Shown in pieces: positions 5,299-34,617 of a DNA stretch of 64,000 bases (the stretch's first letter is position 1; each line of letters opens with the position of its first letter). The notes under the pieces are model-generated. The model ran no database searches. It was not told where the DNA came from and was given only the letters and a program-made list of their open reading frames with translations. The stretch is from Escherichia phage MN05: the sequence record NC_070987.1. One strand, given 5' to 3'. Both the position numbers and the translations under genes were made by a program.

Positions 5299-5305
5299 AA
5301 CTAGA

Positions 5306-5330
5306 CCCTGCCTTCGGGCGGGGTTTTTTC
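5306..5330 (+). terminator. rho-independent terminator
   Basis: CCCTGCC-ttcg-GGCGGGG hairpin (one G-U pair) followed by TTTTTT. Confidence 0.7.
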
Positions 5331-5334: not shown

Positions 5335-5366
5335 TAAGACCTATACAAGCCAGTGTGTAATGTATA
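5335..5366 (+). promoter_or_regulatory. putative late promoter (TAAGACCTA-N14-TAATGTATA)
   Basis: two-element motif identical in architecture to the site at 22433-22464; lies about 34 nt upstream of the ATG at 5400. Confidence 0.5.
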
Positions 5367-5399
5367 TTCTTTGTCTACATATAACAAGGAGGACAACCT

Positions 5400-6152
5400 A
5401 TGGCAATGCCAGATGTTCAATACCCCATCAATACCTATGGGTGGCTAAAGAAGGCCGTGGCCCTCTGGGCAGATAGGGACGATGACGAATTTGTTAATCA
5501 AATTCCAAACTTTATTAACTTTGCAGAGAAAGAGATTTATCGTAACTTACGTATCCCCCCTCTGGAAAAAGAAGTGTATTTAGATATCAAAGATGGAGTG
5601 GCTTATATTCCTCCTGATTACTTAGAAGCTCAATGGATGATGAGAGCCAAAGATGGTACAATCTTCCAAGTAACATCTCCTGAAGAGATTAGCTATCGTA
5701 GACAGCATGGAACAATTAACCCATCTCACTGGAATAACCAACCTGTTAACTTTGCTCGTTTCGGTAGTCGTTTCATTTTCTATCCTAGTATTGAAGCAGA
5801 TACTCCGTACTATCCTGATGATGGAAGTCCTTTGATTCCAGCAGAAAACTCAGTAATTCTTAGCTATTATGCAGACCCACCGGAATTCCACGAAGATACA
5901 GATACCAGTGCTATCCTTACTATTGCACCAGAACTTCTTCTGTATTTCACTCTACGTCATGCTTGCTTGTTTGTTCAAGATGATAATGGAGTTCAGAAAT
6001 GGTCTGCATTAGGAAAAGCTATCCTTGATGAAATGGTAGAGCAGAATAAGAAACAAGAGTACTCAGGTTCACCTATCGCAATTCCGAATAACATGACTCG
6101 ACTTCAGAGCAGCTTGCCTGATATTTATGGTATTCGTACTTCTCGTGTATAA
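5400..6152 (+). CDS. virion structural protein (adaptor/tail component), putative
   Basis: 250 aa ORF with strong RBS AAGGAGG; located between capsid and tail fiber genes. Confidence 0.35.
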   Translation: MAMPDVQYPINTYGWLKKAVALWADRDDDEFVNQIPNFINFAEKEIYRNLRIPPLEKEVYLDIKDGVAYIPPDYLEAQWMMRAKDGTIFQVTSPEEISYRRQHGTINPSHWNNQPVNFARFGSRFIFYPSIEADTPYYPDDGSPLIPAENSVILSYYADPPEFHEDTDTSAILTIAPELLLYFTLRHACLFVQDDNGVQKWSALGKAILDEMVEQNKKQEYSGSPIAIPNNMTRLQSSLPDIYGIRTSRV

Positions 6153-6161
6153 GGAGATAAT

Positions 6162-8942
6162 ATGATCGTTTATAATAACCAAGCACCTGATGCAGTGAAT
6201 AACGTTGGGCAGTTTGGTGCTACGGAAGGCTCTATTGGAGCTTACAAGCAAGCAGCAGAATATGCAGCTGACTCTAAATATTGGGCACTGCTAGCGGAGT
6301 CTAAGTTTGGCACAATTGATGACTTGATCGCTGAAGTAGAACGTCTGTATCAACAAGGTGTTCTGATGAAGCAGGATATTGAAGATCTTAAGCAGGATTT
6401 TATAGATCAAGATGCTCGTTTGATGACTCTAATTGCTCAAACTAACGCAGCGGTCTCTGATGCTAATAACGCTGTTGCTCTCATTAATCAGAAGCTCATT
6501 GAAGTCCAGAAACAGCTTGATGTTCTGTTGGGAATGTCTGTTGATGTAACTACCCTTCCTCCGGGAACTCCAGCTACTGGTTCTTTTAATCCGAGCACTG
6601 GTGTAATCTCTTTAGGTATTCCGGAAGGGGATCCCGGAAAGGATGGCTCTGTTAAGGATTTGGATACAGCACCTACCGGTGTTCCAGAGTTAGGCGACTT
6701 AGGTTTCTACGTTGACAAAGATGACAATACTGTCCACAAAACTACTCTAGAGAACATTGCTAACTTAATCCCATCTGTTCGTTCTATTTCTGTTAACGAA
6801 GGTCCAGCTCTTGATGGAGAAGTTGCTCTGACAATCAACAAGAATACAGTTGGTTTAGGGAACGTTCTGAACGTTGCTCAATATAGCCGTCAAGAGATTA
6901 ACGATAAGTTTGATAAAACTACCAAGACATACCAATCAAAAGCAGAGGCAGATGCTGATGCTCAGTATCGTCAAGTTGGGGAGCAGGTCTTGGTTTGGGA
7001 AGCTACTAAGTATGAATTTTACACTGTTGCTGCTAACAAAACACTAACCCCTGTTAAGACTGAAGGTAGAATCCTTACTGTCAACTCTCGTTCTCCAGAC
7101 TCAAGCGGTAACATTGATATCACTATTCCAACAGGGAACCCGTCTCTGTATCTTGGTGAGATGGTAATGTTTCCTTATGACCCAACGAAGAATATCTCAT
7201 ATCCGGGGGTTCTTCCTGCTGACGGTCGTTTGGTGTCTAAAGAGTCTGCTCTAGATTTAGGCCCATCACTTGTTAGTGGTCAGCTTCCTGTGGTCTCTGA
7301 AACAGAATGGCAGGCTGGTGCTCGTCAGTATTTCTCTTGGGGTAAGTTATCAGATGGAGTCACTGATGCAGATTCTACTAACTTCATCAGCATTCGACTT
7401 CCCGACTGGACTGGCGGGGAGGCTATTAGATCCCCTGATTCAGATAAGGATGCTAACTACAAGGGTCGTGTTCAGTCTCAGATTCCTTACATCGTAACCG
7501 TAAATGGAAAAGCTCCTGACGACGCTAACGGAAACGTTGTCATAACCGCTGCTAGTTTGGGTGCGGCTGCATCAGGGGCGAACTCTGATATAACTTCTTT
7601 AAATGGACTCACCACTCCCTTATCCCCACAACAAGGGGGCACAGGGGCTAATAGTATTGAAGGTGCTCGTTCAAACTTAGGAATTGATAGAATAAAGAAT
7701 GACTCCACACAAACCACAGTAGGTTCAGCAGACGGAAGAGCCCTTCTTACCATAACTAACAATCCTGAAGATTGGGGTGTGCTTTGGTGGAATGGCTCTG
7801 GTTATGAAACAAAACCTCTTAGTGTAAGCAAAGGTGGAACAGGATCCACTACGGCTGCCGGGGCTAGGGCAAACCTGAATATTGAGAGATTCCAGCAAGA
7901 TGCTGGTTGGACTCTTATGTATTCACCGGACAATACTAGACGTTTATATGTGGACAATAAAGGAGGTTCTTGGGGTTGTCAGAACGTAGAGGATGGCGGA
8001 TCTTTGGCCCTAGCTGTAGCGCAAGGTGGGACAGGAGCTACTACAGATGCGGCAGCACGTGTTAACCTAAAAGTTGATAAACTTGTCCAAAGTTCAACTG
8101 ACACTAAACTCTTAGATGGATCAGGAGAGCATACGTTCTTTATTACAGATGCTGATTGGGGGTATTTCAATAATTCTGACTCTTCTCGAATTGCTTTGCC
8201 AATAATTAGTGGTGGTACAGGTGGTAAAACACCTGCTGAAGCCTCTGAAAAACTAGCAGCAATGCATTGTCAGTATGGTGCATCAACTTACTACGGTAGT
8301 GGAGATTTACCAACTGGTGTTGGGTTCTATAGCCTAGACACATCACCGTTTCCGGGAGGTAATGGTGCACCCTTCACATATGCAGAGATAATGACTATTG
8401 CTGAAGGTGGTCGTGGAGGTAACTGGTCCCAAATAGGGTTCTCTACTATCACGTATGAAGCCCCTCGCTACAGACAAAGGACTAGTGACCCGTCTTTAAT
8501 CACAAACTGGAGAGATTTCTTAGTAAGAGATTTAAACACGACTGTAGATCCTAATGGTTTTGTTAAAATTGCATCACCTATAGTCAAACTAAAATCTGAC
8601 GGTTCTTCTGAAGTTAATGACCAAGCCCAAGGAGTAACAACCGAAAGATTAGATGTTGGTGTTTACAAGATATCCGGGACTTTAGGGTTTAACTCAGATG
8701 CATCTTGGGGCGGTATCGGAGGTGGTTTTTCTATTCCGCAAAACTCTAATGGTTTACCTCTTCTTTGGGTTGACTATGAAGTTGATGAAGAAGGTGATAT
8801 TACTCTGAAAACTTACCATCGAACTCATGAGGGAGTCCCTTCTTTTGCCAGTAATGTAATAGAGGGTGTGGCAGACGGGGAACCTATCGATATTCCTGTT
8901 GGAAGATGGGTTGACCTTCGTGTTGAGATGCCTTCTAAATGA
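6162..8942 (+). CDS. tail fiber protein with tandem phage tail-fibre repeats
   Basis: 926 aa; at least four copies of the GGTG-x(6-8)-AR-x-NL motif (e.g. LSPQQGGTGANSIEGARSNLGI, LSVSKGGTGSTTAAGARANLNI, LAVAQGGTGATTDAAARVNLKV). Confidence 0.55.
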   Translation: MIVYNNQAPDAVNNVGQFGATEGSIGAYKQAAEYAADSKYWALLAESKFGTIDDLIAEVERLYQQGVLMKQDIEDLKQDFIDQDARLMTLIAQTNAAVSDANNAVALINQKLIEVQKQLDVLLGMSVDVTTLPPGTPATGSFNPSTGVISLGIPEGDPGKDGSVKDLDTAPTGVPELGDLGFYVDKDDNTVHKTTLENIANLIPSVRSISVNEGPALDGEVALTINKNTVGLGNVLNVAQYSRQEINDKFDKTTKTYQSKAEADADAQYRQVGEQVLVWEATKYEFYTVAANKTLTPVKTEGRILTVNSRSPDSSGNIDITIPTGNPSLYLGEMVMFPYDPTKNISYPGVLPADGRLVSKESALDLGPSLVSGQLPVVSETEWQAGARQYFSWGKLSDGVTDADSTNFISIRLPDWTGGEAIRSPDSDKDANYKGRVQSQIPYIVTVNGKAPDDANGNVVITAASLGAAASGANSDITSLNGLTTPLSPQQGGTGANSIEGARSNLGIDRIKNDSTQTTVGSADGRALLTITNNPEDWGVLWWNGSGYETKPLSVSKGGTGSTTAAGARANLNIERFQQDAGWTLMYSPDNTRRLYVDNKGGSWGCQNVEDGGSLALAVAQGGTGATTDAAARVNLKVDKLVQSSTDTKLLDGSGEHTFFITDADWGYFNNSDSSRIALPIISGGTGGKTPAEASEKLAAMHCQYGASTYYGSGDLPTGVGFYSLDTSPFPGGNGAPFTYAEIMTIAEGGRGGNWSQIGFSTITYEAPRYRQRTSDPSLITNWRDFLVRDLNTTVDPNGFVKIASPIVKLKSDGSSEVNDQAQGVTTERLDVGVYKISGTLGFNSDASWGGIGGGFSIPQNSNGLPLLWVDYEVDEEGDITLKTYHRTHEGVPSFASNVIEGVADGEPIDIPVGRWVDLRVEMPSK
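7555..8265 (+). repeat. in-frame coding repeats (tail fibre repeat units) within tail fiber gene
   Basis: recurring protein-level motif x-GGTG-...-AR-x-NL about every 60-70 codons; coordinates approximate. Confidence 0.45.
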
Positions 8943-8951
8943 AACAAGAAT

Positions 8952-8970
8952 GCTCCCTTCGGGGAGCTTT
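8952..8970 (+). terminator. terminator-like hairpin (weak U-tract)
   Basis: GCTCCC-ttcg-GGGAGC hairpin followed by TTT, then RBS of next gene. Confidence 0.4.
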
Positions 8971-8982
8971 AAGGAGAAATAA

Positions 8983-11181
8983 ATGTCTAGAGAATTAATG
9001 CCCAAATCTGGCATAATGATGCCTCACGTAGTTGTGACCAGAGATGCGGCTGTTGTTGGTGTTTCTACCGTAGACGGACAGGCAGGGGCTATTGACCTCA
9101 CTGGAAAGTATCTACAGAAAACCGACGCAGCTGCTACCTATCAAACTAAAACAGAGGGTGCATCTAAAGATTTTGTGCTGGATTCAATTCAACCTATTAT
9201 GTCTGGTGCTTTGTTCCGAGCAGACCCTTGGGTTGTGAATGATACACCTTTCCGTTCTACTGGAGCTAATGGTGTAGAGTCAGTTGATATGATGAAAGTT
9301 ACTACTGACAACTCAATCAAGATTGGCAGTTATGCTTCCTCAGTTCAGGGTGTAGAGATTCACTCTGCTGGTCGTCTTCAAGTAGTAGACCAGAACGACT
9401 CCGGAGTAGAAACTAAATACCCTGTGTATTCTAAACGATATCGTCCTGAGATTGAGGATTTGCCTTTTGCTGCAATTGGTTCTTATGTCAAAGATTCTAA
9501 GGGTCGTACTATTGGTGTAAACCGTACCGGTATCAACTCCGATATCAAACAACTCACCCAGAAAGTAACCTTTACCCAACCTGTTACTGTACCAGATGGT
9601 GTTGGGGACTACGATGCTGTGACAGTGAGACAACTCCGAAATAGTGGCGGCAGTGGTGGCGGTGCCTCCATGAGTGGGGTGATGAATAACTTTATCGGTG
9701 CGGTGGAGTGGTGGCAGGGATCAAGAGTCAAGTTGCCGGCTGGGTATGTCGCTGCTGATGGTCAACTATTGACTCGTACCGATTACCCTGACTTGTGGGC
9801 TGCTGTAGATGCTGGGTTGTTGATGTCTATTGACGAGACGGGCTGGCTGAACACTGTCGGGGTTAAGTTCCTCCACAGGGCTAAATACTCGACCGGGGAT
9901 GGGTCGACGAACTTCCGCGTTCCTGATTTGAACGGGGTTCAGACCGATTCTCTGAGTCGGATCTTCTTGTCAGGCTCAAGTGGAAAGTCGACGGATTGGT
10001 CTGTTGATGGGGTTGCGGGGGTCGTTGCCCCCCAATCTGCACCGAATATCACCGGGAATTTTTATACTCACGGTTCGAATGCGGATGCGATAGATGCCAA
10101 TGGGGCCTTTAAGCTGGGCTCGATGGATACAGGTAGCTCATTCACCGCCGGAGGCACGGAGAGGGGCGACCAGATATCATTTAGTGCAAAATCCTCCAAT
10201 GACACCTACGGCAAGCTGGGTAACTCTCTCGCTCCGAACCACGCAGGTGGCATTTGGATCATCCGAGCCTCTGGTGGATTTACTGCTGCTAACACGTCTT
10301 GGTCTGTTATTAACAGTGACGCCTCAGAACCTCCTAGCGGTACTCCTATTACTGGTGGATTGGTTTCTTCTAAATATGTAGTTGGAGGTGTTGATAAATA
10401 TCGGTCTTCTATCCAATTGCAAGGGTCTAATGAAGTTGATTTATCAACTAGAATTACCACGATAAACGATAGATATTCCATCGGGGCTGCAACTTGGGAT
10501 TTTAAATTAGATGGTAAACTTCTTTTCAACAAAAGCCTGACTCCTAATGGAACAGGATACTCTCCGGGTAATACCTATCTAACTTTAGCTAACACTTGGA
10601 TGTCCTCTGGATATTCAGGGTACATAGGTTTTATAGGTGGTGGGGTTGGGGTTTCTAATGGTGGTTGGAGAAACTTTATTTCCTTAGGCTCTCTAATCTT
10701 CCCAGACTCCAGTCACCCAACTGCTATTATTTCTCAGGTTTACGACTATGACCTTCCTACAGGAAACCAGCCTAATGGAGATATTGTCAGAAACACCTCT
10801 TTCAATGCGGAGAGCTATGATATCACTTTTGGAAACAACAGTGGGACTACCAATTACATCTTCAGTAAGTCTCCAGTCTCTGACGAACGGCTAAAACATA
10901 GCATTAAGGAAGAAGGGACAGCCACAGCTCTTTCTAACTTAAACAAGATGGAGTATAAAACCTTTATCTATAATTATGATGAGAAAGCAACTGTAAGGCG
11001 TGGGTTTATTGCCCAACAACTTGAAGCTATTGACCCTCAATATGTTAGGAAGTATAAAACCTTCAAAGGTACTGATACCCTAGCTTTAGATGAGAATGTG
11101 TTGCTTTTAGATGCAATTGCTGCTATTCAAGAGCTTACCAAAAAGGTTGAGGTTTTAGAAGCAAAATTGTCAGAGAAGTAA
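8983..11181 (+). CDS. tail fiber/spike protein with C-terminal intramolecular chaperone (S74-type) domain
   Basis: 732 aa; C-terminal SDERLKHSIKEE...GFIAQQLEAIDPQYV matches the autoproteolytic chaperone signature of phage fibers/spikes; Gly-rich central region. Confidence 0.6.
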   Translation: MSRELMPKSGIMMPHVVVTRDAAVVGVSTVDGQAGAIDLTGKYLQKTDAAATYQTKTEGASKDFVLDSIQPIMSGALFRADPWVVNDTPFRSTGANGVESVDMMKVTTDNSIKIGSYASSVQGVEIHSAGRLQVVDQNDSGVETKYPVYSKRYRPEIEDLPFAAIGSYVKDSKGRTIGVNRTGINSDIKQLTQKVTFTQPVTVPDGVGDYDAVTVRQLRNSGGSGGGASMSGVMNNFIGAVEWWQGSRVKLPAGYVAADGQLLTRTDYPDLWAAVDAGLLMSIDETGWLNTVGVKFLHRAKYSTGDGSTNFRVPDLNGVQTDSLSRIFLSGSSGKSTDWSVDGVAGVVAPQSAPNITGNFYTHGSNADAIDANGAFKLGSMDTGSSFTAGGTERGDQISFSAKSSNDTYGKLGNSLAPNHAGGIWIIRASGGFTAANTSWSVINSDASEPPSGTPITGGLVSSKYVVGGVDKYRSSIQLQGSNEVDLSTRITTINDRYSIGAATWDFKLDGKLLFNKSLTPNGTGYSPGNTYLTLANTWMSSGYSGYIGFIGGGVGVSNGGWRNFISLGSLIFPDSSHPTAIISQVYDYDLPTGNQPNGDIVRNTSFNAESYDITFGNNSGTTNYIFSKSPVSDERLKHSIKEEGTATALSNLNKMEYKTFIYNYDEKATVRRGFIAQQLEAIDPQYVRKYKTFKGTDTLALDENVLLLDAIAAIQELTKKVEVLEAKLSEK

Positions 11182-11186
11182 TATAA

Positions 11187-11206
11187 GCCCCTTCGGGGGC
11201 TTTAGT
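11187..11206 (+). terminator. rho-independent terminator
   Basis: GCCCC-ttcg-GGGGC hairpin followed by TTT. Confidence 0.55.
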
Positions 11207-11273
11207 AGTAAGTACCCTTAGTAAGTAATGAAACTAATATATCCCAAGAGGTTAATATATAGGAGACACTCAA

Positions 11274-11492
11274 ATGAAAATGATGAAACAAGCTGCATAC
11301 GGTTTAATATGTTTAGGCGCGGGTGTTGTGGTGTCAACCGCAGTTCCTGTAGGCGCAGTCCATCCATTAGTAACTGTCCCTGCTCCAGTAGAGAAACTTA
11401 GCTCTCAATGTAAGCAGAGAACAATTCAAAATAACTTAGTTGTTATTTGCCCTGATGCTGAATCTAACGCTCTGAGAAAGATACTACCTTAA
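11274..11492 (+). CDS. small membrane/secreted protein (holin candidate, speculative)
   Basis: 72 aa; N-terminal hydrophobic segment AAYGLICLGAGVVVSTAVPVGAV; 28 nt upstream of lysozyme gene. Confidence 0.25.
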   Translation: MKMMKQAAYGLICLGAGVVVSTAVPVGAVHPLVTVPAPVEKLSSQCKQRTIQNNLVVICPDAESNALRKILP

Positions 11493-11520
11493 TTTAAAGG
11501 GACTACAAAGGAGGTTAGAA

Positions 11521-12012
11521 ATGGATAACGTCGCATTGCCACCTGTACAACTAAACCTAAGCCCAGCTGGAATGGAATTCATCATGAAGCATGAGGGTAT
11601 GAGAACCAAGGCTTATAAAGATTCCGCAGGTATCTGGACGATATGTGTAGGGGCTACGCGCGATATGAATGGTTATCCGGTTAGACAAGGATTAACGTAT
11701 TCTATAGAGGATTGTCTAGCTCTGCTAGATAGAGACACACAAGACTCTGTTCGTGCTACTCAGAAGAACATAAAGGTTCCTTTACTAGTTCATGAGTTTG
11801 ATGCACTCACTTCTTTCAACTTCAATGTTGGCAGTGGGGCTTTGAGCACATCTAAGTTAAGGAAGGTAATCAATGGAGATGTTAAGGGGGATGTTTATTC
11901 CGAATTTCTTCGTTGGGATAAAATAACGGTCAAGGGAGAGAAGCAGAGAAGTCAGGGTCTTCATAATAGAAGAGTTGCAGAAGCTAATCTTTACACCGAA
12001 GGTAAATATTAA
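11521..12012 (+). CDS. lysozyme (GH24 muramidase, T4 E-like)
   Basis: 163 aa; FIMKHEGMRTKAYKDSAGIWTICVGAT resembles the catalytic region of T4-type lysozymes (E...Y.D..G.WTIG.G). Confidence 0.6.
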   Translation: MDNVALPPVQLNLSPAGMEFIMKHEGMRTKAYKDSAGIWTICVGATRDMNGYPVRQGLTYSIEDCLALLDRDTQDSVRATQKNIKVPLLVHEFDALTSFNFNVGSGALSTSKLRKVINGDVKGDVYSEFLRWDKITVKGEKQRSQGLHNRRVAEANLYTEGKY

Positions 12013-12024
12013 TGGAGGTGCCTT

Positions 12025-12828: not shown

Positions 12829-12837
12829 GGAGGAATT

Positions 12838-15800
12838 ATGGCGCTGTATCCAATAAAGTCACTAGGTGCTGTAGGCGTTATCGCTGATCAGGCTCCGACA
12901 GACTTAGCTCCTAATGCTTTCACTAATGCTATAAATGCTCGATTTGTTGAGCAGAGAGTATTTAAGACGGGGGGCAATGCCCCTCTTTCTTATGTAGATG
13001 AAGATAAGGATTTAACCCCTCTGTCTTTCGTTTCTATGCCTTTCGATTATTATAGCGCAGGTAATAGCTTTCTTGTTGTAGGTACGGATAAGAAGTTATA
13101 TAAACTGACAGATGAAAGCTTGACTGATATTAGCCGTAAGGTTGCTACAGTCACTAAGAAGGCTTCTGCCTCAATTAAGATTTATCCAGTTGTTTCTCAG
13201 ATCGTTCCTAAAGAATCAACTATCTCAATGAACTTCAATCAGACCAAGAATCTAGAGGTTTCTCTTCTCCCTGCTGATGCTAACAATACTGATCTTATTT
13301 GGGAGGTTAGTAACTCATCCTATGGAAGTATTACGGTAGACCCTAGTGACTCTAAACTTGCTACTCTAACATCTTTTGAGAAAGAAGGCAATCTTGTAGT
13401 AACTATCTCTACTGCCAACGAATCTGTAGTGGCTCAGATTGCTGTTAATATCATCGACGGTGATTCAGGCATCTTCTTGAGTCAAGACACTGTTACAATT
13501 CGTAAAGGAGGGACTACTACTCTCACGGCTGTTACTGGCAAAACTCCTGTAACTTGGTCCAGCAATAATGCTTCTATTGTAGCCGTAACCCCTAACGCCA
13601 ATTCTTTAACTGCTGTCATTACAGCGAACGGAGAAGGTAATGTAACAATCACTGCTGATAACGGGACTAAGACTGCTTCTTGTGAGGTTGTTTCCATCCC
13701 TCAGATTGATAGTATCTCTTTGAGCCAGTCAGATGTTATTGTGAGCAGAGGTTCTCAGTATATCTTAACTGCTACCCTTTCTCCTGCTAACGCCCCTAAT
13801 CAAAATATTACTTGGACCTCTTCTAATCCAAATATTGCAACAGTATCAGGGAATAGCACACAAGGGACGATCAACGCTTTACTTGCTGGCTTTACTGAGA
13901 TTACAGCTACCACTGAAGAAGGCAACAGGGTTGCTGTCTGTACTGTAAGAGTAGACTTAGCTGGAAGGGCTATGAGAACAAGTGCTATGGCATTTGCTGC
14001 ACCTGCATCAGAACCAATTGAATCACAAGAGGAAGAAGTAGTAACTCCTCCTGAAAGTGAAGAGACGGTTTATTTTGCTGAGCCTACGTCTGGTATTGAT
14101 ACGTCAGGGATGTACGAAGGTAACAACTTCTATGATTATTCTAACGTAAACGATATTGAAGGTTTTGCAAGAGCTTCTTTGTTCGCAACCCCTTTATCAT
14201 CCGTAACCTTAGATGTTGTCAGCGCTTCTCTCGATGTTGGTGAGGAAATAGTTATTACAGCTACAGCTTCTCCAGAAGGTGATTATTCTTATCAGTGGTC
14301 TGTTGATAAGACTGGCTATGTTTCTACAACTTCAGTTACTGGTAAATCTATCAAACTGGTTGCTCTTCGTAAAGGAGAGATTAATGTAACATGTACTGTC
14401 AGCCAAATGACTCAGAAGGATTACGATGCTTTTGATGACTACCCTTGGTATCACGCTATTATTTCTAACTGTGCAGTTGCTACAACTCACTATGAAACTC
14501 CTCAGGTAAAAGAATTCGAATCAGAATACTTTGTAGATCTTCCGGGATGGGGTGAGCAAACAGTTGTCGATAATGACGGGAACCCTTCAGTCAAGAAGTT
14601 TAACTGGAAATGTGAAAGAGTGAGATCTTTTAACAACCGTCTTTTTGCTCTGAACATGAGAGAGGCTAACGCTTCTGGTGTTACCACTAACTACCCGCTT
14701 CGTCTTCGTTGGTCTAACTTTGCCAATGAGAACAAGGCTCCTACACTGTGGGATGACTTTGCCTATGATAGAGTTGTGTCTTCGGACTTGGCTTCTAACA
14801 TCGTAGGACAGACTCAGGCTTTAGAAAATGGATATGCGGGTTACATTGACCTAGCGGATTCTAATGGCAGCCTGATTGATATCCTACCTCTTAAAGATTA
14901 CTTGTTCGTTTACACAGAGTTTGAAACGTATATTGGTTCTCCGACTAATAACACATACCAACCTCTGATGTTCAAGAAACTCTTTAATGACTCTGGTATC
15001 CTTGCTCCTGAGTGTGTGGTTGAAGTAGAAGGTAGCCACTTCGTAGTTACTCAGAACGATGTAATCTTACATAATGGTGCAACCAAGAAGTCAATTGCAT
15101 CTAACCGTGTTAAGAACATGCTGATTAATGAGGTGTGTCTGGTCAACCCTCTAGCTACTCGAGTTCACTTACATCAGGATAAGAAAGAAGTTTGGGTTCT
15201 CTATGTAGGTCCGGGAGAGCCGAAAGAAAGCTTCGCTTGTACTAAAGCTGCTGTATGGAACTACGAGTTTGATACTTGGTCCTTCCGTACTATTCCTTAT
15301 GCTCAGTGTATCGGTCTGGTTGATCCTCCTGTTTTAGAGAGAGGTCCAATCTGGTCTGACTTCCAAGAGATCACTTGGGATGACCAATCCATCAAAGAGC
15401 TTGTTTGGAGAAAGGATGCAACAAACTTTAGACAGAGGGTTACGATAGTAGGTTCGTTCTTGAGGGGATTCTACCAAGTGGATGTAGGTGCTCTTGATTA
15501 TTTCTATGACAGGTTAAATGATGTTGTTATAGAGAAGCCTCTGGAGATGAGGTTGGAGAGAACTGGTCTAGATTTTGATAATGTGACGAATGAGTGGAAT
15601 CAGAAGCATATTAACAGATTCCGTCCTCAGACAACCGGCTCAGGCACTTATACCTTTGAAGCTGGAGGTAGTCAATTCTCAAATGAATATGGACACCCAC
15701 ACACATCTAAGACTTATACAATCGGTGTTGACAGGCATGTCTCGGTGAGACTGAACCATCCATACCTTTTCTATAATGTTATAGATAATGATGTTAACAG

Positions 15801-15855
15801 TAATGCTGCTATCAATGGACTAACGATAGAGTTTGCTGTTGGCGGACGGAGATAA
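12838..15855 (+). CDS. large tail/structural protein with tandem bacterial Ig-like (Big_2-type) domains
   Basis: 1005 aa; N-terminal half has 3-4 repeats of the pattern V.V.P......G.T..LTA......V.W.SSN..IA.V...G.VTA...G...ITA. Confidence 0.5.
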   Translation: MALYPIKSLGAVGVIADQAPTDLAPNAFTNAINARFVEQRVFKTGGNAPLSYVDEDKDLTPLSFVSMPFDYYSAGNSFLVVGTDKKLYKLTDESLTDISRKVATVTKKASASIKIYPVVSQIVPKESTISMNFNQTKNLEVSLLPADANNTDLIWEVSNSSYGSITVDPSDSKLATLTSFEKEGNLVVTISTANESVVAQIAVNIIDGDSGIFLSQDTVTIRKGGTTTLTAVTGKTPVTWSSNNASIVAVTPNANSLTAVITANGEGNVTITADNGTKTASCEVVSIPQIDSISLSQSDVIVSRGSQYILTATLSPANAPNQNITWTSSNPNIATVSGNSTQGTINALLAGFTEITATTEEGNRVAVCTVRVDLAGRAMRTSAMAFAAPASEPIESQEEEVVTPPESEETVYFAEPTSGIDTSGMYEGNNFYDYSNVNDIEGFARASLFATPLSSVTLDVVSASLDVGEEIVITATASPEGDYSYQWSVDKTGYVSTTSVTGKSIKLVALRKGEINVTCTVSQMTQKDYDAFDDYPWYHAIISNCAVATTHYETPQVKEFESEYFVDLPGWGEQTVVDNDGNPSVKKFNWKCERVRSFNNRLFALNMREANASGVTTNYPLRLRWSNFANENKAPTLWDDFAYDRVVSSDLASNIVGQTQALENGYAGYIDLADSNGSLIDILPLKDYLFVYTEFETYIGSPTNNTYQPLMFKKLFNDSGILAPECVVEVEGSHFVVTQNDVILHNGATKKSIASNRVKNMLINEVCLVNPLATRVHLHQDKKEVWVLYVGPGEPKESFACTKAAVWNYEFDTWSFRTIPYAQCIGLVDPPVLERGPIWSDFQEITWDDQSIKELVWRKDATNFRQRVTIVGSFLRGFYQVDVGALDYFYDRLNDVVIEKPLEMRLERTGLDFDNVTNEWNQKHINRFRPQTTGSGTYTFEAGGSQFSNEYGHPHTSKTYTIGVDRHVSVRLNHPYLFYNVIDNDVNSNAAINGLTIEFAVGGRR

Positions 15856-15861
15856 CAACAA

Positions 15862-15885
15862 GGGGCTTCGTGCCCCTTTTATTGT
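15862..15885 (+). terminator. rho-independent terminator
   Basis: GGGGC-ttcgt-GCCCC hairpin followed by TTTTATTGTTTT; sits inside the 5' end of listed ORF 15833..16867, arguing for a later start. Confidence 0.6.
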
Positions 15886-15898
15886 TTTGGAGGAACTT

Positions 15899-16867
15899 AT
15901 GGGTGCAGGTGGTTTTCGTAAGAATACTGGTCGTAATAACACCACACTCCCGTACAACGTTGGGTTTCTCAATAATGTACAGGACACAGAAACATATAAC
16001 GTAGCCGTATATGACGAGCTACAGAAAGTCAGTACAGCTACTAACCAAATGTTCCAAGCTATTGATGAGATTCATGATGAGATTGATGTTCGTATCAAAG
16101 CTCTTCATGCGATGAATCTACAATTTGATGAGCTTGAGAACAGAATTACCACAGAGATTGAAACAGCTATCGCAGATATTATAACACAGATGGGGAATCT
16201 CTCCACTGAGGATATTTGGGATAACTCTGTTCAACCTCCGGTAAAACTAGAAAGCACTGTATCTGGCTTTAAAACAAGTATTGAAGGTAACACAACTAAG
16301 ATTCAAACGGTAGAAGGGATTGTTAACGACCAAGGTCAAGAGATTGCTTTAGTTCAGACAGAGATTCAAAATATCAATGGAAGCCTCTCTCAGTATATGA
16401 AGCTTTCTGAGTATGAAGCTACGTGGGGTGTTAACTCTACGGTCAACGGAAGATATGCTGGGGTCAAGTTAACTAATAACGGAACAAACAGTCAATTCCA
16501 AGTAACAGCTAACAAGTTTATTGTTGGTGATGGCAGCTCTGGTAATACCCCTTTTGTATTTGAAGGCGGAAGAGCTAGGATGGAATTCGCTGACATAAAG
16601 AACGTCAACATCACAACGGCTCAGATTGCCAACGCTAGGATCCAATGGGCACAGATTGATAACGTATCTATCTCCAATGCTCAGATTCAGAACTTATCAG
16701 CGGATAAAATCACTGCTGGTTCTATGTGGGGTTCTAACTGGAGACTTACTGTTGGTGGTGATTTTGTTATGGGTGGTACAGGTGGTTCTCAGTTGTGGAT
16801 GAATGGTAATAGAATAGATTTTTATGATGGGAGTGGAACTCTTCGCATAAGAATAGGGAGTTGGTAA
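15899..16867 (+). CDS. tail protein, hypothetical (start revised to ATG after terminator)
   Basis: RBS GGAGGAAC precedes the ATG near 15899 (MGAGGFRKN...); C-terminal region has repeated N-I-x-x-A-Q-I motifs. Confidence 0.4.
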   Translation: MGAGGFRKNTGRNNTTLPYNVGFLNNVQDTETYNVAVYDELQKVSTATNQMFQAIDEIHDEIDVRIKALHAMNLQFDELENRITTEIETAIADIITQMGNLSTEDIWDNSVQPPVKLESTVSGFKTSIEGNTTKIQTVEGIVNDQGQEIALVQTEIQNINGSLSQYMKLSEYEATWGVNSTVNGRYAGVKLTNNGTNSQFQVTANKFIVGDGSSGNTPFVFEGGRARMEFADIKNVNITTAQIANARIQWAQIDNVSISNAQIQNLSADKITAGSMWGSNWRLTVGGDFVMGGTGGSQLWMNGNRIDFYDGSGTLRIRIGSW

Positions 16868-16868
16868 C

Positions 16869-17903
16869 ATGGCATATGGAATATGGACACGCCCGGTTGG
16901 TCCGGGTCCAGCGGCACCTGCTGATATTTATATTGATAGTGGTAGCACATTCCCTCAACTCAGAAATAGAGTCAGTGGGAATTTCTCTTTTAGTGGAAAT
17001 ACCTGTGACTTGCCTATAAGTGGTTGGGATGGTAGTGGTCAGATAGTTGTAGTCCCAACAGGGTCTGTTGTTTGGGAGAGATATATACCTCCTAATGTAA
17101 CGTCTGATGTGTATTGGCTAACGGATATATCTGTTATTAATAACTCAACCTTCAGGGTTACTATGGACTATAACGTAAACGGTTGGGTATTTGATATGGC
17201 TTTTAATGTATATCAAATATGGCCTAGAGCTAACAGGAACTATGGAATCACATTCTCCAACTCTGCTGACTATTTCTCAATCTCTGATTCTGGAGTTGTT
17301 GGTCAATGTATTTGGGCTTGGGAGGGTGACATAAACGGTGCTCTTCAAATACCAGATATTGGTGGTTTTGATATGAGCCGAGCAACTGTCTATGCGAATT
17401 GGAGTAACGGCGGAGCAGGTCTGCTATACAACCCATCCAATAGGGTTGTTTATGTGTACCAGAACAGATCTCATGATAATGGTAACACAAACCAAACAGG
17501 ATCAATTGGCGGTGTTAGAATTGCCGTCTTCTGTGATGGTTCTGGAGTACCAACTCATAATGGAGGTTTAAATATCTTCTCTCCAAATGGGTCTCAGTGT
17601 GTATTTTCTACATATAGAACCCCTTTTAGTGTTGAGAGATTTATGCCTATGAGTGGCGGTAACACATCTCTGGCCTATCCAATGATACCATTATCTTACG
17701 GAGCAGGAGCAATAAGGGGCAAGGCTAGTGGTTGGTATTTTCAACACGCAAGATCTCACATGATGAATGGCTCTTCTTTCGGTACAGGTTTCGGAAGGAT
17801 GATTTACTCTTGGAGTAGTCAATATGATTTAGGAGGGGGTGGTGCCCTCGGGTTAAGTATTCCAATATTAGATGCTAGGAAAATATTCAGGAGTATACAA
17901 TAA
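16869..17903 (+). CDS. virion structural protein, hypothetical
   Basis: 344 aa ORF, tightly coupled to upstream gene. Confidence 0.35.
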   Translation: MAYGIWTRPVGPGPAAPADIYIDSGSTFPQLRNRVSGNFSFSGNTCDLPISGWDGSGQIVVVPTGSVVWERYIPPNVTSDVYWLTDISVINNSTFRVTMDYNVNGWVFDMAFNVYQIWPRANRNYGITFSNSADYFSISDSGVVGQCIWAWEGDINGALQIPDIGGFDMSRATVYANWSNGGAGLLYNPSNRVVYVYQNRSHDNGNTNQTGSIGGVRIAVFCDGSGVPTHNGGLNIFSPNGSQCVFSTYRTPFSVERFMPMSGGNTSLAYPMIPLSYGAGAIRGKASGWYFQHARSHMMNGSSFGTGFGRMIYSWSSQYDLGGGGALGLSIPILDARKIFRSIQ

Positions 17904-17912
17904 GGAGATATT

Positions 17913-18695
17913 ATGGCAATTAGAATGGGTATCGAAGAACTAGACCCAATGGTGCAACGGGCTTCAAAGAAGTATGGAATACCAGCTGCTTTGATTCATG
18001 CTGTAATCCAAAGAGAATCTAGTGGTCGTCCTACAGTGGCCTCTGGAACTGGTCCTGTAGGTTTAATGCAGATCAGTAAAGGGTTGGCTAAAGATTACGG
18101 TTACAAACTAGAAGACAGACTTGACCCAGAAAAGAATATTGATATGGGTGCTCGTTACATAAGAGATAACTTAAAAGCTTTTAATGGTGATGTTAAGAAA
18201 GCAATGGTTGGTTATTCAGAAGGTATCGGTGGAGCTAAGCAAATGTTCGCTGGTAAAAAGGGATTTACTCCACAAGCTCTTGACTCCATGAACAATAAAC
18301 ACTTTCTTCCTTTCTATGGTGATGCAGCTTCTCAGATTGCTAATCCAATTGGAGCTTTGCAAGCTGTTCAACCAGTCAATCAGTTTAATCCTGACTTGTT
18401 AGACAGAGAGAAGGCTGCACAAGCTCCCACTCAGGCAGAGATTGCTGCTTCTAAGACAGGTGCTTTAGGTGGTAATCCGGTAGAGTTTTACTCTGATGAA
18501 GTGCAGGAAGGTGAAGACCAGAAGCCTCAACAGAACTTTGGTAATGCTGTATTAGGGGTAGCTGCTATGCTTGCTGGTAAACCTCCCACCTCTCAAACAG
18601 TTCAGAGGGCAAGTGCACCACATGCAGCAGGTTCTCAGTATAGTCCACAAACACAAGCAGTGCTCAGACGTTTGGCTAGCATTGGTGTAAAGTAA
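17913..18695 (+). CDS. internal virion protein with lytic transglycosylase (SLT) domain
   Basis: N-terminal AALIHAVIQRESSGRPTVASGTGPVGLMQISKGLAKDYGY resembles the SLT catalytic motif (E-S ... GLMQ ... Y). Confidence 0.6.
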   Translation: MAIRMGIEELDPMVQRASKKYGIPAALIHAVIQRESSGRPTVASGTGPVGLMQISKGLAKDYGYKLEDRLDPEKNIDMGARYIRDNLKAFNGDVKKAMVGYSEGIGGAKQMFAGKKGFTPQALDSMNNKHFLPFYGDAASQIANPIGALQAVQPVNQFNPDLLDREKAAQAPTQAEIAASKTGALGGNPVEFYSDEVQEGEDQKPQQNFGNAVLGVAAMLAGKPPTSQTVQRASAPHAAGSQYSPQTQAVLRRLASIGVK

Positions 18696-18714
18696 TAACC
18701 TTTAAGGAGGACTT

Positions 18715-19767
18715 ATGTCTTTATTTGGAAAATCAGCTTCTAGCAAAACCACAGTGGCCCCTTCCTCTCAGGTTGATGCCCTGCTGAAGCAGATTGTTGC
18801 TAATGCTCAGAATATGCAGAACAACGATCCGGGATTCATCTCCCAACAGCTGGCTGGGTTTAATGGCAACCAACAAGGTGCTCTTAATAACTTAGCAGCT
18901 TCTACTACTCAGAAGAAACTAGCTGATATGTACACACCTCGTACACAGCAAGGTTTAGACCAACTTAACTCTCTTGCTCAACAGTATCAGAATATTGTTA
19001 ATGGTGGTGGAGTGACGGCTGAAGGGGTTAATAACTTTAGTAAAGGTTTGAATAACTCAGCTCTTGCACAAGCTACTAGTAAAGCAGCTTCTAATGTTTC
19101 TCTTGGCAATGGCTCTGATTCAGGATCTCTCCGTAGAGCTGCGGCTCAAGGGGCTGCTTTGAATGGTGCTAACACTAACCTGTCTCGTACTATCAGTGGC
19201 AAGAATATGGGTGTAAGTGCTCTTCAACAAGATCAAAACTTCCAGAGAGGGTTGCTTGGTGCTCAATCTGGTCTAGCTGGACAGAACCTCAACCTAGGTG
19301 CTCAAGGTGTTCAGGCAACTCAACAGGCTATTCAGAATCAACTCATGGCTGGCAATCTTCAACAGCAACAAGCTCAAGCTCAGGCTGATACTAATTGGCA
19401 AAATGCTATTGGTTCTCAGCAGTATGGGTGGAATCAGCTTAACAACCAGCTTAATGTATTAAATAGTGTAAGTCCGATGGCTGGATACACGATTAAGAAT
19501 TCTGCTCCGGGAGTTAATGTTGGGCAGCAGCTCCTAGGTGCTGGTATCACTGGTTTAGGTATTGCGGGTCGTATGGGTGCTTTCTCTCCTGATCAACAAA
19601 CTCAGAATGCTTGGAGTTCCTATAACAATTCAGGTGGGCAATCTGGAATGGCTGGTCCTATGATTGGAGGTTCTAATCTTTCTCAACAGAAAGGTCAATC
19701 TAACTGGTTATCCACAACGGGTAATAATATCTTAGGCGGAGTCTTAGGGGCATTTGGAGCAAACTAA
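18715..19767 (+). CDS. Q/N/G-rich internal virion protein (paralog 1)
   Basis: 350 aa; N-terminus MSLFGKSASSKTT and QGALNNLAAS parallel the next gene. Confidence 0.4.
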   Translation: MSLFGKSASSKTTVAPSSQVDALLKQIVANAQNMQNNDPGFISQQLAGFNGNQQGALNNLAASTTQKKLADMYTPRTQQGLDQLNSLAQQYQNIVNGGGVTAEGVNNFSKGLNNSALAQATSKAASNVSLGNGSDSGSLRRAAAQGAALNGANTNLSRTISGKNMGVSALQQDQNFQRGLLGAQSGLAGQNLNLGAQGVQATQQAIQNQLMAGNLQQQQAQAQADTNWQNAIGSQQYGWNQLNNQLNVLNSVSPMAGYTIKNSAPGVNVGQQLLGAGITGLGIAGRMGAFSPDQQTQNAWSSYNNSGGQSGMAGPMIGGSNLSQQKGQSNWLSTTGNNILGGVLGAFGAN

Positions 19768-19779
19768 AGGAGATTTGAT

Positions 19780-20748
19780 ATGGCTTTATTTGGAGGAGGG
19801 AATAGTAAAACTACTTCCCAAATGATTCGCCCTGAATATATTCAACAGTATATTGACCAGCTTAACCAACAGATTGGTAATACTAGTTCAGGGGATTATG
19901 TTTATCGTGACAATGTAGGATTCAATAACAACCAGACAGAAGCTCTTAACAACTTAGCACAATCTGGTGCTCTAGGGACTCTCTCGCAGCAATATATGGA
20001 TGCAGCAGGTCAAGGGTTGGGTTATCTAGATAATGCCTATAAAGGCTATCAGAGCCTCTCTGGACAAGGTGGGATTACTGGGGAACAGATTGGTGCTCTT
20101 GCTGGTCAACTATATGATGATGACGCTGTGCAAGCAGCCATTACAGCTAATAATGAACAAGTTCAACAGAACCTAGCACGTAACGCTCTTCCTCAGTTGT
20201 CTCAACAGTATGCTGGTCAGCAGGGTTCAGGTGCTCGTATGGCTAAATCTTTTGCTCAGGGTGATGCTCTGAATCAGATGCAAAGTCAAGCAACAGATAT
20301 TACCAATAGTGCTTATAACTCGGCTATCAACCAAGCTGAAAGCATTCTCTCTGGTAATAGACAGAATCAGGCAGCTGCTCTCTCGGGCCTTTCTACTATC
20401 GGTTCTAACCTTTCTAATTTAGGTCAACAAGGTGCTGATCTATCTCAACAGCAAATACTAAACCAGTGGAAGGCTGGGTTGCAGCAACAACAGCAACAAC
20501 AGAATGAATATGATAATGCCTACCAGAATGCTCAGAACGCAGCTAATTGGGGATGGCAGGATATAAACAACCAACTCGGTGCAGCAGGTGTACTTAACGG
20601 TGCTCTCGGACAAACTACAACTACTAAAACATCTGGTGGGGGTGGTGGCTTCTTAGGTGGAGCTATGAGTGGTGCAGCAGCTGGCTCTTCTTTTGGTCCT
20701 TGGGGTGCCTTGGCTGGAGGGGTGATTGGCGGGATGGCTAGTTCTTAA
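19780..20748 (+). CDS. Q/N/G-rich internal virion protein (paralog 2)
   Basis: 322 aa; N-terminus MALFGGGNSKTTSQ and TEALNNLAQS parallel the previous gene. Confidence 0.4.
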   Translation: MALFGGGNSKTTSQMIRPEYIQQYIDQLNQQIGNTSSGDYVYRDNVGFNNNQTEALNNLAQSGALGTLSQQYMDAAGQGLGYLDNAYKGYQSLSGQGGITGEQIGALAGQLYDDDAVQAAITANNEQVQQNLARNALPQLSQQYAGQQGSGARMAKSFAQGDALNQMQSQATDITNSAYNSAINQAESILSGNRQNQAAALSGLSTIGSNLSNLGQQGADLSQQQILNQWKAGLQQQQQQQNEYDNAYQNAQNAANWGWQDINNQLGAAGVLNGALGQTTTTKTSGGGGGFLGGAMSGAAAGSSFGPWGALAGGVIGGMASS

Positions 20749-20761
20749 TTAGGAGATAAAT

Positions 20762-22435
20762 ATGCAACAGACAACTTATGCTCAGGTCAGAAGTCGTGAC
20801 CCGAGAAATACTTTCTATGGTGTTAATCCGGGAGCGGCTTCGGCCTCTCCTTACATGGCTAGACCCATTCAGACAGCAGATGTTTCTATGTACCAACGTC
20901 CTGCTGTACCTGCTGGACTTTCCCGTCTTGTAGGTCAAACTTCAGTGGATTATCAGAATATGCTGAACCCTGTTCAGAGTAATGGACTTCCTTCTGATAT
21001 TCCTAATGACGTACAACCTCAAGCACAACAAGCTGTAACTCTTCCTGAGCCTAATAATCAAGAAACTGTGCAAGATGCCGGACCTTCTCCTTCTTCTGTT
21101 CCTCAAGAATCGGAGCCTCTTCCGGTGACGCCTCCGACTAAGCCTCTCGAAGATGGTCCTACAGAGTTTACTCCTTCTCAAGTAGAGCAGGCACAAGGTG
21201 TTGTTACCACTCTTGCTCAAAGTCAGGACACTGGTGAAGGCATGGCTGGGGCTACTCGTGCAAAAGATCAAGAACGTGTTAACTCTGATATCATGCAGAT
21301 TGCAAAAGCTAAAGACCCTTCAGAGGCTTGGAATAAGTTACAGAAAGAGCCGTTCTACCAGAACTCTAGTTTCTACACAGGCTTAATGGGTGTAGGTCTT
21401 TCAATCATGTCAGGTAAGTCTCCGATTGAAGCTTTCCAAATTGGTCAAGGTATGGCTAACCAAGATGAGACTAAGAAACAACTAGAAGCTAACCGTGATG
21501 CATTGGTTGAACAAGGTTTCTCTCAAGACTCTATTGCTGCTGCTATCGCAAGCGGAGACCCTTCTCTTCTGAAGATGAGAGCTAAAGACCCTCTTCAACA
21601 GGAAGCTTTATACGCTGAGCGTGAGAGACGCCAGAATGCTGAGTGGGATAGACGTCAAGCTATCAATGAAGAATCTGCTGAGAGAAATCGTAAGGCTACT
21701 TGGGAAAACCAATTAGCTCTGGCAGAAGCCCGTGGTGAGATTGTTCGTGACAACCTTTTGTTCAAGAATGAACACAGTGTTCGTAAAACATCTCCCAAGT
21801 GGGAAAAATCAGAAGAACTTGGTGGTATTACCCCTAACTTCCGAGATAAGTTACAGCAATCTTATCGTCCTGTTATTAATGTCCTAGCTTCTCGAAACAA
21901 GTGGATGGCTCCTACAGAAGCTGCTATTTCTAAACTAGGAACTGGTTCAAACTCTCAAGAGAGTGCAGCTCAGCAACGTGCTGCTATTGAGAACTTGACT
22001 AAACTTATTCAAGGTGGTTTAGCTTCCATTAATGGAGAGGTAATGAATGAGCTTACAGGTGATCCAGATTGGGTTAACAACAAGTTGAATAAGATTCAGA
22101 TGATGGCAGGTCAAGGTCCGACCGAAGCAAATATCAAATGGCTTAAAGCACTAGGTACAGAGATTCAAGAAATCGATAAAGAGGCAACTAAATATCAAGT
22201 AGCCCCTCTAGTGGAATCTTTGATTCTTGACAGTGGTTTAGCTCCTGATAATGCTATCAAAGCTGCTAACTCTATTTTTGCTCCTGGCTCTGTTCGACTT
22301 ACTACTGAAGAGTTTAAAGAATGGTCTCGTGGACATAGTAAAGTTCATGATAAAACATTCCCTGATGATAAGCCCTCTAAATTGAAGGGTGGTGCTTTAT
22401 CTGATTCTTCAGATACTAGCTGGTTCACTAAGTAA
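20762..22435 (+). CDS. internal virion protein, hypothetical
   Basis: 557 aa ORF; Pro/Gln-rich N-terminal region; within internal-protein cluster. Confidence 0.35.
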   Translation: MQQTTYAQVRSRDPRNTFYGVNPGAASASPYMARPIQTADVSMYQRPAVPAGLSRLVGQTSVDYQNMLNPVQSNGLPSDIPNDVQPQAQQAVTLPEPNNQETVQDAGPSPSSVPQESEPLPVTPPTKPLEDGPTEFTPSQVEQAQGVVTTLAQSQDTGEGMAGATRAKDQERVNSDIMQIAKAKDPSEAWNKLQKEPFYQNSSFYTGLMGVGLSIMSGKSPIEAFQIGQGMANQDETKKQLEANRDALVEQGFSQDSIAAAIASGDPSLLKMRAKDPLQQEALYAERERRQNAEWDRRQAINEESAERNRKATWENQLALAEARGEIVRDNLLFKNEHSVRKTSPKWEKSEELGGITPNFRDKLQQSYRPVINVLASRNKWMAPTEAAISKLGTGSNSQESAAQQRAAIENLTKLIQGGLASINGEVMNELTGDPDWVNNKLNKIQMMAGQGPTEANIKWLKALGTEIQEIDKEATKYQVAPLVESLILDSGLAPDNAIKAANSIFAPGSVRLTTEEFKEWSRGHSKVHDKTFPDDKPSKLKGGALSDSSDTSWFTK

Positions 22436-22464
22436 GACCTAAGTCCTGCCTTCTATAATGTATA
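22433..22464 (+). promoter_or_regulatory. putative late promoter (TAAGACCTA-N14-TAATGTATA)
   Basis: same two-element architecture and spacing as the 5335-5366 site; about 39 nt upstream of the ATG at 22503. Confidence 0.5.
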
Positions 22465-22502
22465 TAGGGGGTAGGACATTTTTATTTATAAAAGGAGACG
22501 TT

Positions 22503-29441: not shown

Positions 29442-30725
<1,284 letters not shown>

Positions 30726-30995: not shown

Positions 30996-31017
30996 TAAGC
31001 TATAACAAGGAGAGTTA

Positions 31018-31840: not shown

Positions 31841-31860
31841 TGTAAGATAAGTATCATTTT

Positions 31861-34609: not shown

Positions 34610-34617
34610 AACTCACC

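Follow-up and report, generated by a model that had tools for sequence, protein, structure and literature searches.

gp36-type promoters in Escherichia phage MN05, with two apparent variants of the -35 box and a candidate seventh promoter

Results

A gp36 sigma factor and orthologues of known promoters

We analysed a stretch of 64,000 nucleotides (nt) of Escherichia phage MN05 (NC_070987.1), here called the window, in which a first-pass annotation had noticed copies of a nine-base motif, the 9-mer TAATGTATA, and had proposed that a phage-encoded sigma factor directs host RNA polymerase to them. The window is ~94% identical to Escherichia phages SR02 and NJ01 and many other Kuravirus genomes, which bears out the earlier assignment to the phiEco32-type phages. 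The open reading frame (ORF) at 29821-30465 on the minus strand was rightly named as the sigma factor gene: its product is gp36, 100% identical over 213 amino acids (aa), residues 1-213, to chain F of PDB entry 9m7y (E 3e-145). The gene for a homologue of the co-factor gp79 lies at 49286-49534, also on the minus strand, and its 82-aa product matches chain G of the same entry across residues 1-82 (E 1e-51). Within IMG/VR, the sigma gene is present in four relatives only. gp79 acts as an inhibitor of the sigma-70 holoenzyme and as an activator of the gp36 holoenzyme, and the C-terminal domain of gp36, which has a shortened helix, depends on gp79 for its stability (PMC12276001). In vitro, RNA polymerase core and gp36, with or without gp79 and without any other phage protein, are enough to transcribe the phiEco32 promoters P26 and P68, the activity of P26 being raised 4-fold by gp79 (PMC12276001).

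A motif search of the window found the exact 9-mer six times, on the plus strand at 5358, 17204, 22456 and 31886 and on the minus strand at 31825-31833 and 38458-38466, against 0.70 copies expected; at least six copies were reached in 0 of 100 dinucleotide-preserving shuffles of the 64-kb window. When A or T (W) is allowed as the first base, AAATGTATA is added at 43167-43175 on the minus strand and at 60862 on the plus strand, and the resulting pattern WAATGTATA occurs eight times instead of the expected 1.42, a count of at least eight again being absent from all 100 shuffles. The hexamer AATGTA on its own shows no enrichment in the window (40 versus 31 expected), so the signal resides in the full 9-mer. 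All six coordinates listed by the first-pass annotation were found again, and two further copies, at 17204 and 60862, had been overlooked. The distance that it gave between motif and gene start, 34-61 nt, is right for five sites, with starts at 5400, 22503, 31764, 38421 and 43127, but fails for 31886 on the plus strand. Downstream of the 22456 core the gene begins at 22503, and the ATG within the motif is not its true start.

Five of the six sites are already published gp36 promoters, and the core finding is a rediscovery. According to later papers that cite the primary mapping study of phiEco32, this phage has six gp36-dependent promoters with the consensus tAATGTAtA 6-8 nt before the start (PMC4281155, PMC4331800, PMC8948821 Table S3), a consensus that equals TAATGTATA and upholds the proposed targeting of the sigma factor. 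The same papers place P6 (TAATGTAgA), P13 and P26 in a late class and P40, P58 and P68 (aAATGTATA) in a middle class (PMC4331800, PMC4281155, PMC8948821). Copies of the motif precede phiEco32 genes 13, 26, 40, 58 and 68, with flanks equal or close to those in the window. By orthologous sequence and downstream gene, 5358 on the plus strand is P13 and 22456 on the plus strand is P26, both late; 31825, 38458 and 43167 on the minus strand are P40, P58 and P68, all middle. P13 and P68 are identical to their phiEco32 counterparts across the 54 nt compared. P6, at position 1677 in phiEco32, falls outside the window, upstream of its first base. The exact consensus stands at P13, P26, P40, P58 and the remaining site, 31886 on the plus strand (hereafter Px+); P68 has AAATGTATA, matching its published form. 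A gene or operon follows on the same strand at each of the five orthologous sites and is missing at Px+.

Since these five sites are orthologous to published promoters, the main observation of the first-pass annotation was known beforehand, and as a promoter set it changes nothing: MN05 is a close relative of phiEco32, whose sigma factor and promoters form one of the better-studied phage systems of this kind. Work by others on phiEco32 supplies the dependence on the sigma factor, the start sites, the assignment to temporal classes and the G-37 and A-34 contacts; protein identity, site orthology and box conservation were established in this analysis, and we infer that the same events take place in MN05. 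What is new here is modest, namely two conserved -35 variants, a near-universal purine at -37 (R-37) with A-34, and a candidate seventh promoter.

In the numbering of a 2025 cryo-electron microscopy (cryo-EM) structure, which shows the open complex of gp79 and gp36 on P68, AATG occupies -14 to -11 (PMC12276001, PDB 9m7y). In this complex, gp36 uses R187 to contact G-37 and Y186 to contact the T opposite A-34, and mutating these residues or bases abolishes activity (PMC12276001). Applied to the window, the numbering puts TAATGTATA at -15 to -7, the P68 box ATTGGTAGTAGATA at -40 to -27, and the hexamer GGTAGT within that box at -37 to -32. Because the G-37 and A-34 of this hexamer coincide with the bases contacted by the gp36 C-terminal domain, what the first-pass annotation had regarded as the box of a second promoter class can be identified as the -35 element of gp36.

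The comparison covered 29 related loci, made up of 14 GenBank or IMG/VR phage genomes, nine close and three distant metagenomic contigs, and three short regions included for P13 alone. R-37 and A-34 occur together at all six conserved sites of the window, which are the only ones recovered when WAATGTATA is combined with these two bases. The exact copy at 17204-17212 (plus strand), inside the ORF 16869-17903, has G instead of A at -34, is missing at the orthologous place in relatives, and is probably a chance occurrence. The same probably applies to the AAATGTATA copy at 60862-60870 (plus strand), antisense to early genes, which has T at -37 and was unseen in the fetched related loci, most of them ending short of this region. 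A search for the bipartite pattern with mismatches also returned AGTAGT-N16-TAATGAA at 11204-11232 (plus strand), where 93 nt separate the holin gene from the gene before it; because of a deviation at T-10 in the core it was left uncounted, and it might be a weak promoter of the lysis genes or a chance match.

A candidate promoter opposite P40

Px+ spans 31861-31894 on the plus strand and consists of the box ATTGGTAGTAGATA at 31861-31874, with GGTAGT at -37 to -32, an 11-nt spacer and the core TAATGTATA at 31886-31894; its predicted start is the A at 31901. It is divergent from P40, and the two cores, which lie 50 nt apart, are perfect inverted repeats of each other over 11 nt. Downstream of Px+ there is no plus-strand ORF of at least 50 aa, only TTG-start fragments of 20-21 aa, and without a downstream gene Px+ is a candidate promoter only. 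Each of the 25 related loci examined has it, in 19 distinct sequences, phiEco32 (36704, plus strand) among them; every one carries TGGTAGTA at -38 to -31, whereas the spacer varies, and in the metagenomic locus L023 the core is TAATATATA. Px+ is missing from the promoter lists given in the available text of papers citing the primary phiEco32 mapping, and narrow literature searches turned up no description of an RNA or a promoter opposite P40 in kuraviruses. A scan of bacterial genomes for GGGCAGGAGNCACCTGCG was uninformative, with 87 matches in unrelated, mostly high-G+C taxa versus ~69 expected by chance (2 x 596e9 / 4^17), and one extra viral match (L038) is attributable to chance.

The predicted transcript of Px+, non-coding and extending from 31901 to 32085 on the plus strand, comprises a 5' hairpin from +1, a variable middle module and a nearly invariant 3' part of ~95 nt. 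The 5' hairpin reads AGAGUUA gagaa UAACUCU in the window, and its arms are AUAGCU/AGUUAU in phiEco32, AUAGCU/AGCUAU in Bas88, AUAGUU/AACUAU in ECBP2 and AUAGAU/UUCUAU in KBNP1711. The middle module is present as a long allele in MN05 and as a short allele in phiEco32. The ~95-nt part is nearly invariant in all genomes, with ACCGGAAGGGCAGGAGCCACCUGC, AAUAGAGAAU and AUUCUCUAUU following one another along it, and indels of 1 and 2 nt within it exclude coding. No Rfam covariance model matched either strand of 31000-33000 at E values up to 1.

Directly downstream of this module lies an AT-rich tract at 32081-32200, whose 20.8% G+C is the lowest of any 120 nt in the window. It overlaps a 35-aa ORF at 32098-32205 on the minus strand, annotated as gene 41 in phiEco32, and is shorter, although still AT-rich, in Bas88- and Paul-type genomes. 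A repeat search of 31760-32210 gave no iterons. The primary replication origin of T7 combines two promoters, phi1.1A and phi1.1B, with an AT-rich tract behind them. The layout at Px+ recalls such transcription-activated phage origins, in that a phage promoter would fire into a non-coding region, then into the most AT-rich DNA of the window, among T7-like replication genes. The likeness is one of layout only: at Px+ a conserved module, predicted to be a structured RNA, stands between promoter and tract, and the tract is partly deleted in some relatives.

Two readings of this arrangement were weighed. The one that we put forward, tentatively and with somewhat less than even confidence, is that kuraviruses bear a seventh, unlisted gp36 promoter with a P68-like -35 box, from which a conserved, structured non-coding RNA of ~160-190 nt would be made; running in antisense direction, it would enter the gap that separates two units of middle genes and end before the most AT-rich DNA of the genome. 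Such an RNA could be regulatory or antisense, or could be the activating or priming transcript of a T7-like origin, and the use of GGTAGT rather than AAGACC might tune dependence on gp36 and gp79 and in this way contribute to middle versus late timing. The other reading, which we consider rather unlikely, is that Px+ does not work: the adjoining block would be the terminator and 3' end of the leftward P58 transcript, and the element itself a relic, or a polymerase sink or insulator for P40.

A non-working element would fit the want of a plus-strand gene downstream and the change of G-11 to A in the core of one metagenomic relative, but both elements and the 16-bp spacing between them are kept in 24 of the 25 loci, although the 11 nt that separate box and core vary without constraint. 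Read on the minus strand, the long stem runs into UUUUUAU, which makes a better terminator tail than the plus-strand UUUAAAAG, so the block may also, or instead, terminate the leftward P58 transcript. The single-sequence fold is likewise significant on the minus strand (z-score -4.6, compared with -3.2 on the plus strand); the consensus fold, however, is better on the plus strand (-32.2 versus -25.2 kcal/mol), and the 5' hairpin has a consensus fold there only. Covariation is confined to a few pairs, mainly in this short hairpin: three of 40 pairs changed on both sides, two of them in the hairpin, and 30 of the 40 never vary and hence are uninformative, which leaves the evidence for structure suggestive. 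Against a non-working element, the first hairpin begins exactly at the predicted +1, its pairing survives replacement of C-G by U-A or A-U, and ten of its pairs appear as G-U or U-G across the alignment, valid on the plus strand and mismatched on the minus strand. In addition, near-invariance over ~95 nt is more than a plain terminator needs. The downstream block could thus be a small RNA, a minus-strand terminator region or part of an origin. If, as we infer, Px+ fires, a conserved promoter without a gene, joined to a near-invariant structured region, would suggest a small RNA or origin element that has gone unrecognised.

Upstream boxes as apparent variants of a gp36 -35 element

The first-pass annotation had further described two boxes at fixed distances upstream of the core, and both descriptions agree with the window. 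The late pair shares TAAGACCTA at 5335-5343 and 22433-22441, 14 nt from the core in both cases; a third copy, at 36112 on the plus strand, has no core nearby. At the other pair GGTAGTAGATA occupies 31864-31874 on the plus strand and 43187-43197 on the minus strand, within the shared 14-mer ATTGGTAGTAGATA (31861-31874 and 43187-43200, respectively), with 11 nt to the core at each.

Across the related loci, the hexamer at -37 to -32 is GGTAGT in 10 of 10 distinct P68 sequences and in 19 of 19 for Px+; the spacers of both promoters vary, that of Px+ freely from -26 to -16. P26 has AAGACC in 13 of its 14 distinct sequences and AATACC in the other, and at P13 (five distinct sequences) TTTTAAGACC is kept in Bas86/87/88/89, though the spacer has been replaced in Bas86/87/88. 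The 13 distinct P40 sequences carry, depending on lineage, AGTACT, AGCACT, AGTACC, GATACT, GGTAGT or TAGAAC; the ten P58 sequences have four unrelated upstream contexts; and the single P6 sequence reads GGGAGG. All 13 independent upstream contexts have A-34, and 12 of them have a purine at -37. The hexamers of P13, P26, P40, P68, Px+ and the examples from distant relatives can be summarised by a loose pattern at -37 to -32, R R n A S Y, with 16 bp between it and the 9-mer. Judged from these alignments, GGTAGT (P68, Px+) and AAGACC (P13, P26) appear to be two forms of the -35 element of gp36 rather than unrelated class markers. These promoters would accordingly not be single-element ones, in agreement with the 2025 structure and extending it by the near-universal R-37 and A-34 and the two box variants.

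It is very probable that E. coli RNA polymerase with gp36, aided by gp79, reads these promoters. In the mechanism that we propose, the N-terminal domain of gp36 would read and melt a -10-like element, the bases A-14, A-13, T-12 and G-11 inside TAATGTATA, with transcription starting ~7 nt past the motif. The C-terminal domain, stabilised by gp79, would bind the -35 region, presumably including AAGACC. Leftward P68, P58 and P40 would serve the middle genes, which act in replication and nucleotide metabolism, and rightward P13 and P26, with P6 as a third late promoter, the late virion genes.

Several points weigh against reading the boxes and cores in this way. The promoter identities rest on later papers citing the primary mapping study, and the MN05 start sites are predictions from sequence. 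Before 2025 the literature called gp36 promoters 'single-element'. The upstream region of P58 is wholly unconserved, indicating that a -35 element is not required everywhere, and the P6 hexamer misfits Y-32. Finally, the boxes are conserved over 9-14 nt, beyond the usual contact of a domain like sigma region 4, which leaves room for an extra factor.

Another reading is that further regulators, each specific to one class, bind the boxes: TAAGACCTA would be the target of a late activator and the GGTAGTAGATA box that of a dimeric protein, and these would set middle and late timing without gp36 reading either box. This appears to us improbable. The length of conservation, larger than a hexamer, speaks for such regulators, as do the inverted repeat TACTAC n6 GTAGTA, of which the P68 box is one half and which is kept in relatives, the dyad ACTACC n4 GGTAGT in one P40 lineage, and the fact that the cited gp36 papers leave middle versus late timing unexplained. 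On the other hand, P26 and P68 are both active in vitro with purified core and gp36, whether or not gp79 is added (PMC12276001), GGTAGT matches the contacts of the gp36 C-terminal domain base for base, and no candidate regulator was identified. Nor do the boxes track temporal class, as the first-pass annotation had held: TAAGACC(TA) does mark the late promoters P13 and P26, but TAAGACC is missing from the late promoter P6, and neither of the middle promoters P40 and P58 has the full GGTAGTAGATA, P40 having a degenerate hexamer only and P58 no box. The ATTGGTAGTAGATA pair cannot stand as a temporal class, since it joins the middle promoter P68 to an unannotated plus-strand element.

The notion that the 9-mer has no phage-specific meaning, and merely follows from AT-rich intergenic sequence or from the -10 hexamers of sigma-70 promoters, may draw on the overlap of TATAAT with the motif at P26, P40 and P58 (for example, 31830-31857), on the unenriched AATGTA and on the chance-like copies at 17204 and 60862, but it can be set aside with near certainty, being refuted already by the conservation of site position and sequence across many relatives and by the published biochemistry and structure of the identical sigma factor, which reads AATG directly (PMC12276001); the observed count, moreover, was attained by no dinucleotide-preserving shuffle.

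Anatomy of the individual promoters

P13 occupies 5335-5366 on the plus strand, with the box TAAGACCTA at 5335-5343 (-38 to -30), a 14-nt spacer and the core TAATGTATA at 5358-5366 (-15 to -7). This segment is identical to phiEco32 9078-9109, before gene 13. From a predicted start at ~5373, P13 feeds the gene at 5400-6152, which encodes a virion structural protein (phrog_2941), and the genes downstream of it. A terminator hairpin at 5303-5326 (-18.9 kcal/mol) lies just 5' of the promoter.

P26 (22433-22464, plus strand) has its box TAAGACCTA at 22433-22441, its core at 22456-22464 and its predicted start at ~22471; the gene before it, 20762-22435, has the TAA of the box as its stop codon. It feeds 22503-26924, the gene for a 1473-aa virion protein. 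The promoter coincides with a terminator-like hairpin at 22443-22486, formed by a 15-bp stem (22443-22457 with 22463-22477) around the loop AAUGU and followed by UUUUUAUUU, so placed that the core is at the apex (-22.8 kcal/mol, z-score -5.2, none of 200 shuffles equally good). The predicted fold has the stable, G+C-containing stem and subsequent U run of an intrinsic terminator, and the variant arms of Bas88-type genomes, GTCCTATCTC and GAGGTAGGAC, still pair. RNA arriving from upstream would contain the whole hairpin and RNA started at P26 its 3' arm only; as the predicted start is within that arm, only transcripts from upstream would terminate. P6 in phiEco32 also overlaps a terminator.

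On the minus strand, P40 (31825-31855) has its core at 31825-31833, the -35 hexamer GATACT at 31850-31855 (-37 to -32) and a predicted start at ~31818, and feeds 31018-31764, the gene for a gp40 homologue. This protein ends in an acidic tail (...YEDDNDSPF), as do E. coli SSB and T7 gp2.5; in some relatives it is annotated as single-stranded-DNA-binding, and PHROGs lists it as of unknown function (phrog_6599).

P58, also on the minus strand, consists of a core only, at 38458-38466, with its -35 region within the 3' end of a phoH-like gene and a predicted start at ~38451; it feeds 38104-38421. Its ten distinct orthologues, for all their four unrelated upstream contexts, share an invariant downstream sequence beginning CTCCTTAGTGTA. 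Right after the core, in 38421-38457, CTCCTTA is the exact reverse complement of the gene 58 ribosome-binding site TAAGGAG, 15 nt further on, and is invariant in all relatives. In the predicted fold, this hairpin of the 5' untranslated region does not form in the P58-started transcript: the predicted start is inside the 5' arm, so that only RNA reading through from P68 would have its ribosome-binding site covered. At P26 and P58 alike, promoter-started RNA would be without the 5' arm of a hairpin that would terminate read-through in the first case and mask its ribosome-binding site in the second.

P68 (43167-43200, minus strand) has the core AAATGTATA at 43167-43175 and the box ATTGGTAGTAGATA at 43187-43200, with GGTAGT at 43192-43197 (-37 to -32). 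It is identical to P68 of phiEco32, has a predicted start at ~43160 and feeds 42798-43127. The inverted repeat TACTAC n6 GTAGTA, half of which is the P68 -35 hexamer, spans 43192-43211 on the minus strand, and the P40 lineage with the dyad ACTACC n4 GGTAGT, before the gp40 homologue, is that of L019-L022; from their sequence, these dyads may be dimeric binding sites or coincidence.

Distant relatives and comparison with known systems

The three distant metagenomic contigs (L026, L027 and L029; 82-90 kb) encode gp40 homologues (67-69% identical) and sigma factors (53-55% identical). Their lineage has GGTACT, GGAACT or GGGACT, 16 nt, and then [TA]AATG[GT]ATA; the promoter before the gp40 homologue in these contigs has GGTACT or GGAACT, 16 nt and [TA]AATGGATA. 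The distant sigma factors keep Y186 and R187 and carry H80N and R84Q at DNA-contacting positions; sigma factor and -10 element may have varied together here. A scan of the three contigs with the TAATGTATA set recovered the P40 equivalent and one other site only.

The promoter of E. coli sigma-E, an extracytoplasmic function (ECF) sigma factor, reads GGAACTT-N16-TCAAA. ECF sigma factors likewise consist of a sigma-2-like and a sigma-4-like domain, with GG(A/T)A(C/G)T ~16 bp before the -10 element, and GGAACT appears even in the distant relatives of MN05. They differ in that the gp36 -10 element is the 9-mer TAATGTATA, unlike ECF -10 motifs, and in the shortened helix of the gp36 C-terminal domain and its need for gp79.

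With the phiEco32 gp36 system MN05 shares the identical sigma factor, gp79, the consensus tAATGTAtA, five orthologous sites and the G-37 and A-34 of P68 (PMC4331800, PMC4281155, PMC8948821, PMC12276001). It is another isolate, ~94% identical to its nearest relatives, with P6 beyond the window. The phiEco32 papers, which before 2025 described single-element promoters, give no -35 consensus across promoters, whereas two -35 variants are defined here, and the published lists consulted do not include the plus-strand element opposite P40. Phage 7-11 has a related sigma factor, gp47, and a similar genome layout, and its late promoters, GTAAtg-(16)-aCTA, are bipartite with a 16-bp spacer; the element sequences are different, however, and both a gp79 homologue and a middle class are absent from 7-11 (PMC8948821). 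In T4, as here, a small phage protein acts on the interface of sigma region 4 and the flap-tip helix, and AsiA/MotA redirect the polymerase to promoters with an unusual upstream element; in the present system the sigma factor is the phage's own, and gp79 displaces sigma-70 region 4 instead of remodelling it (PMC12276001).

Other features

In the early region, a tRNA-Arg gene (anticodon TCT) is located at 62778-62853 on the minus strand, as reported for other kuraviruses. Endonuclease genes of the endonuclease VII and HNH types are inserted in Bas94 and Bas86. Across these insertions, the DNA polymerase and Rz-like spanin genes are annotated as joined (L009, Bas94, 34046-36596; L015, Bas86, 10814-11706), which suggests intron- or intein-like insertions in these relatives that the MN05 window does not have.

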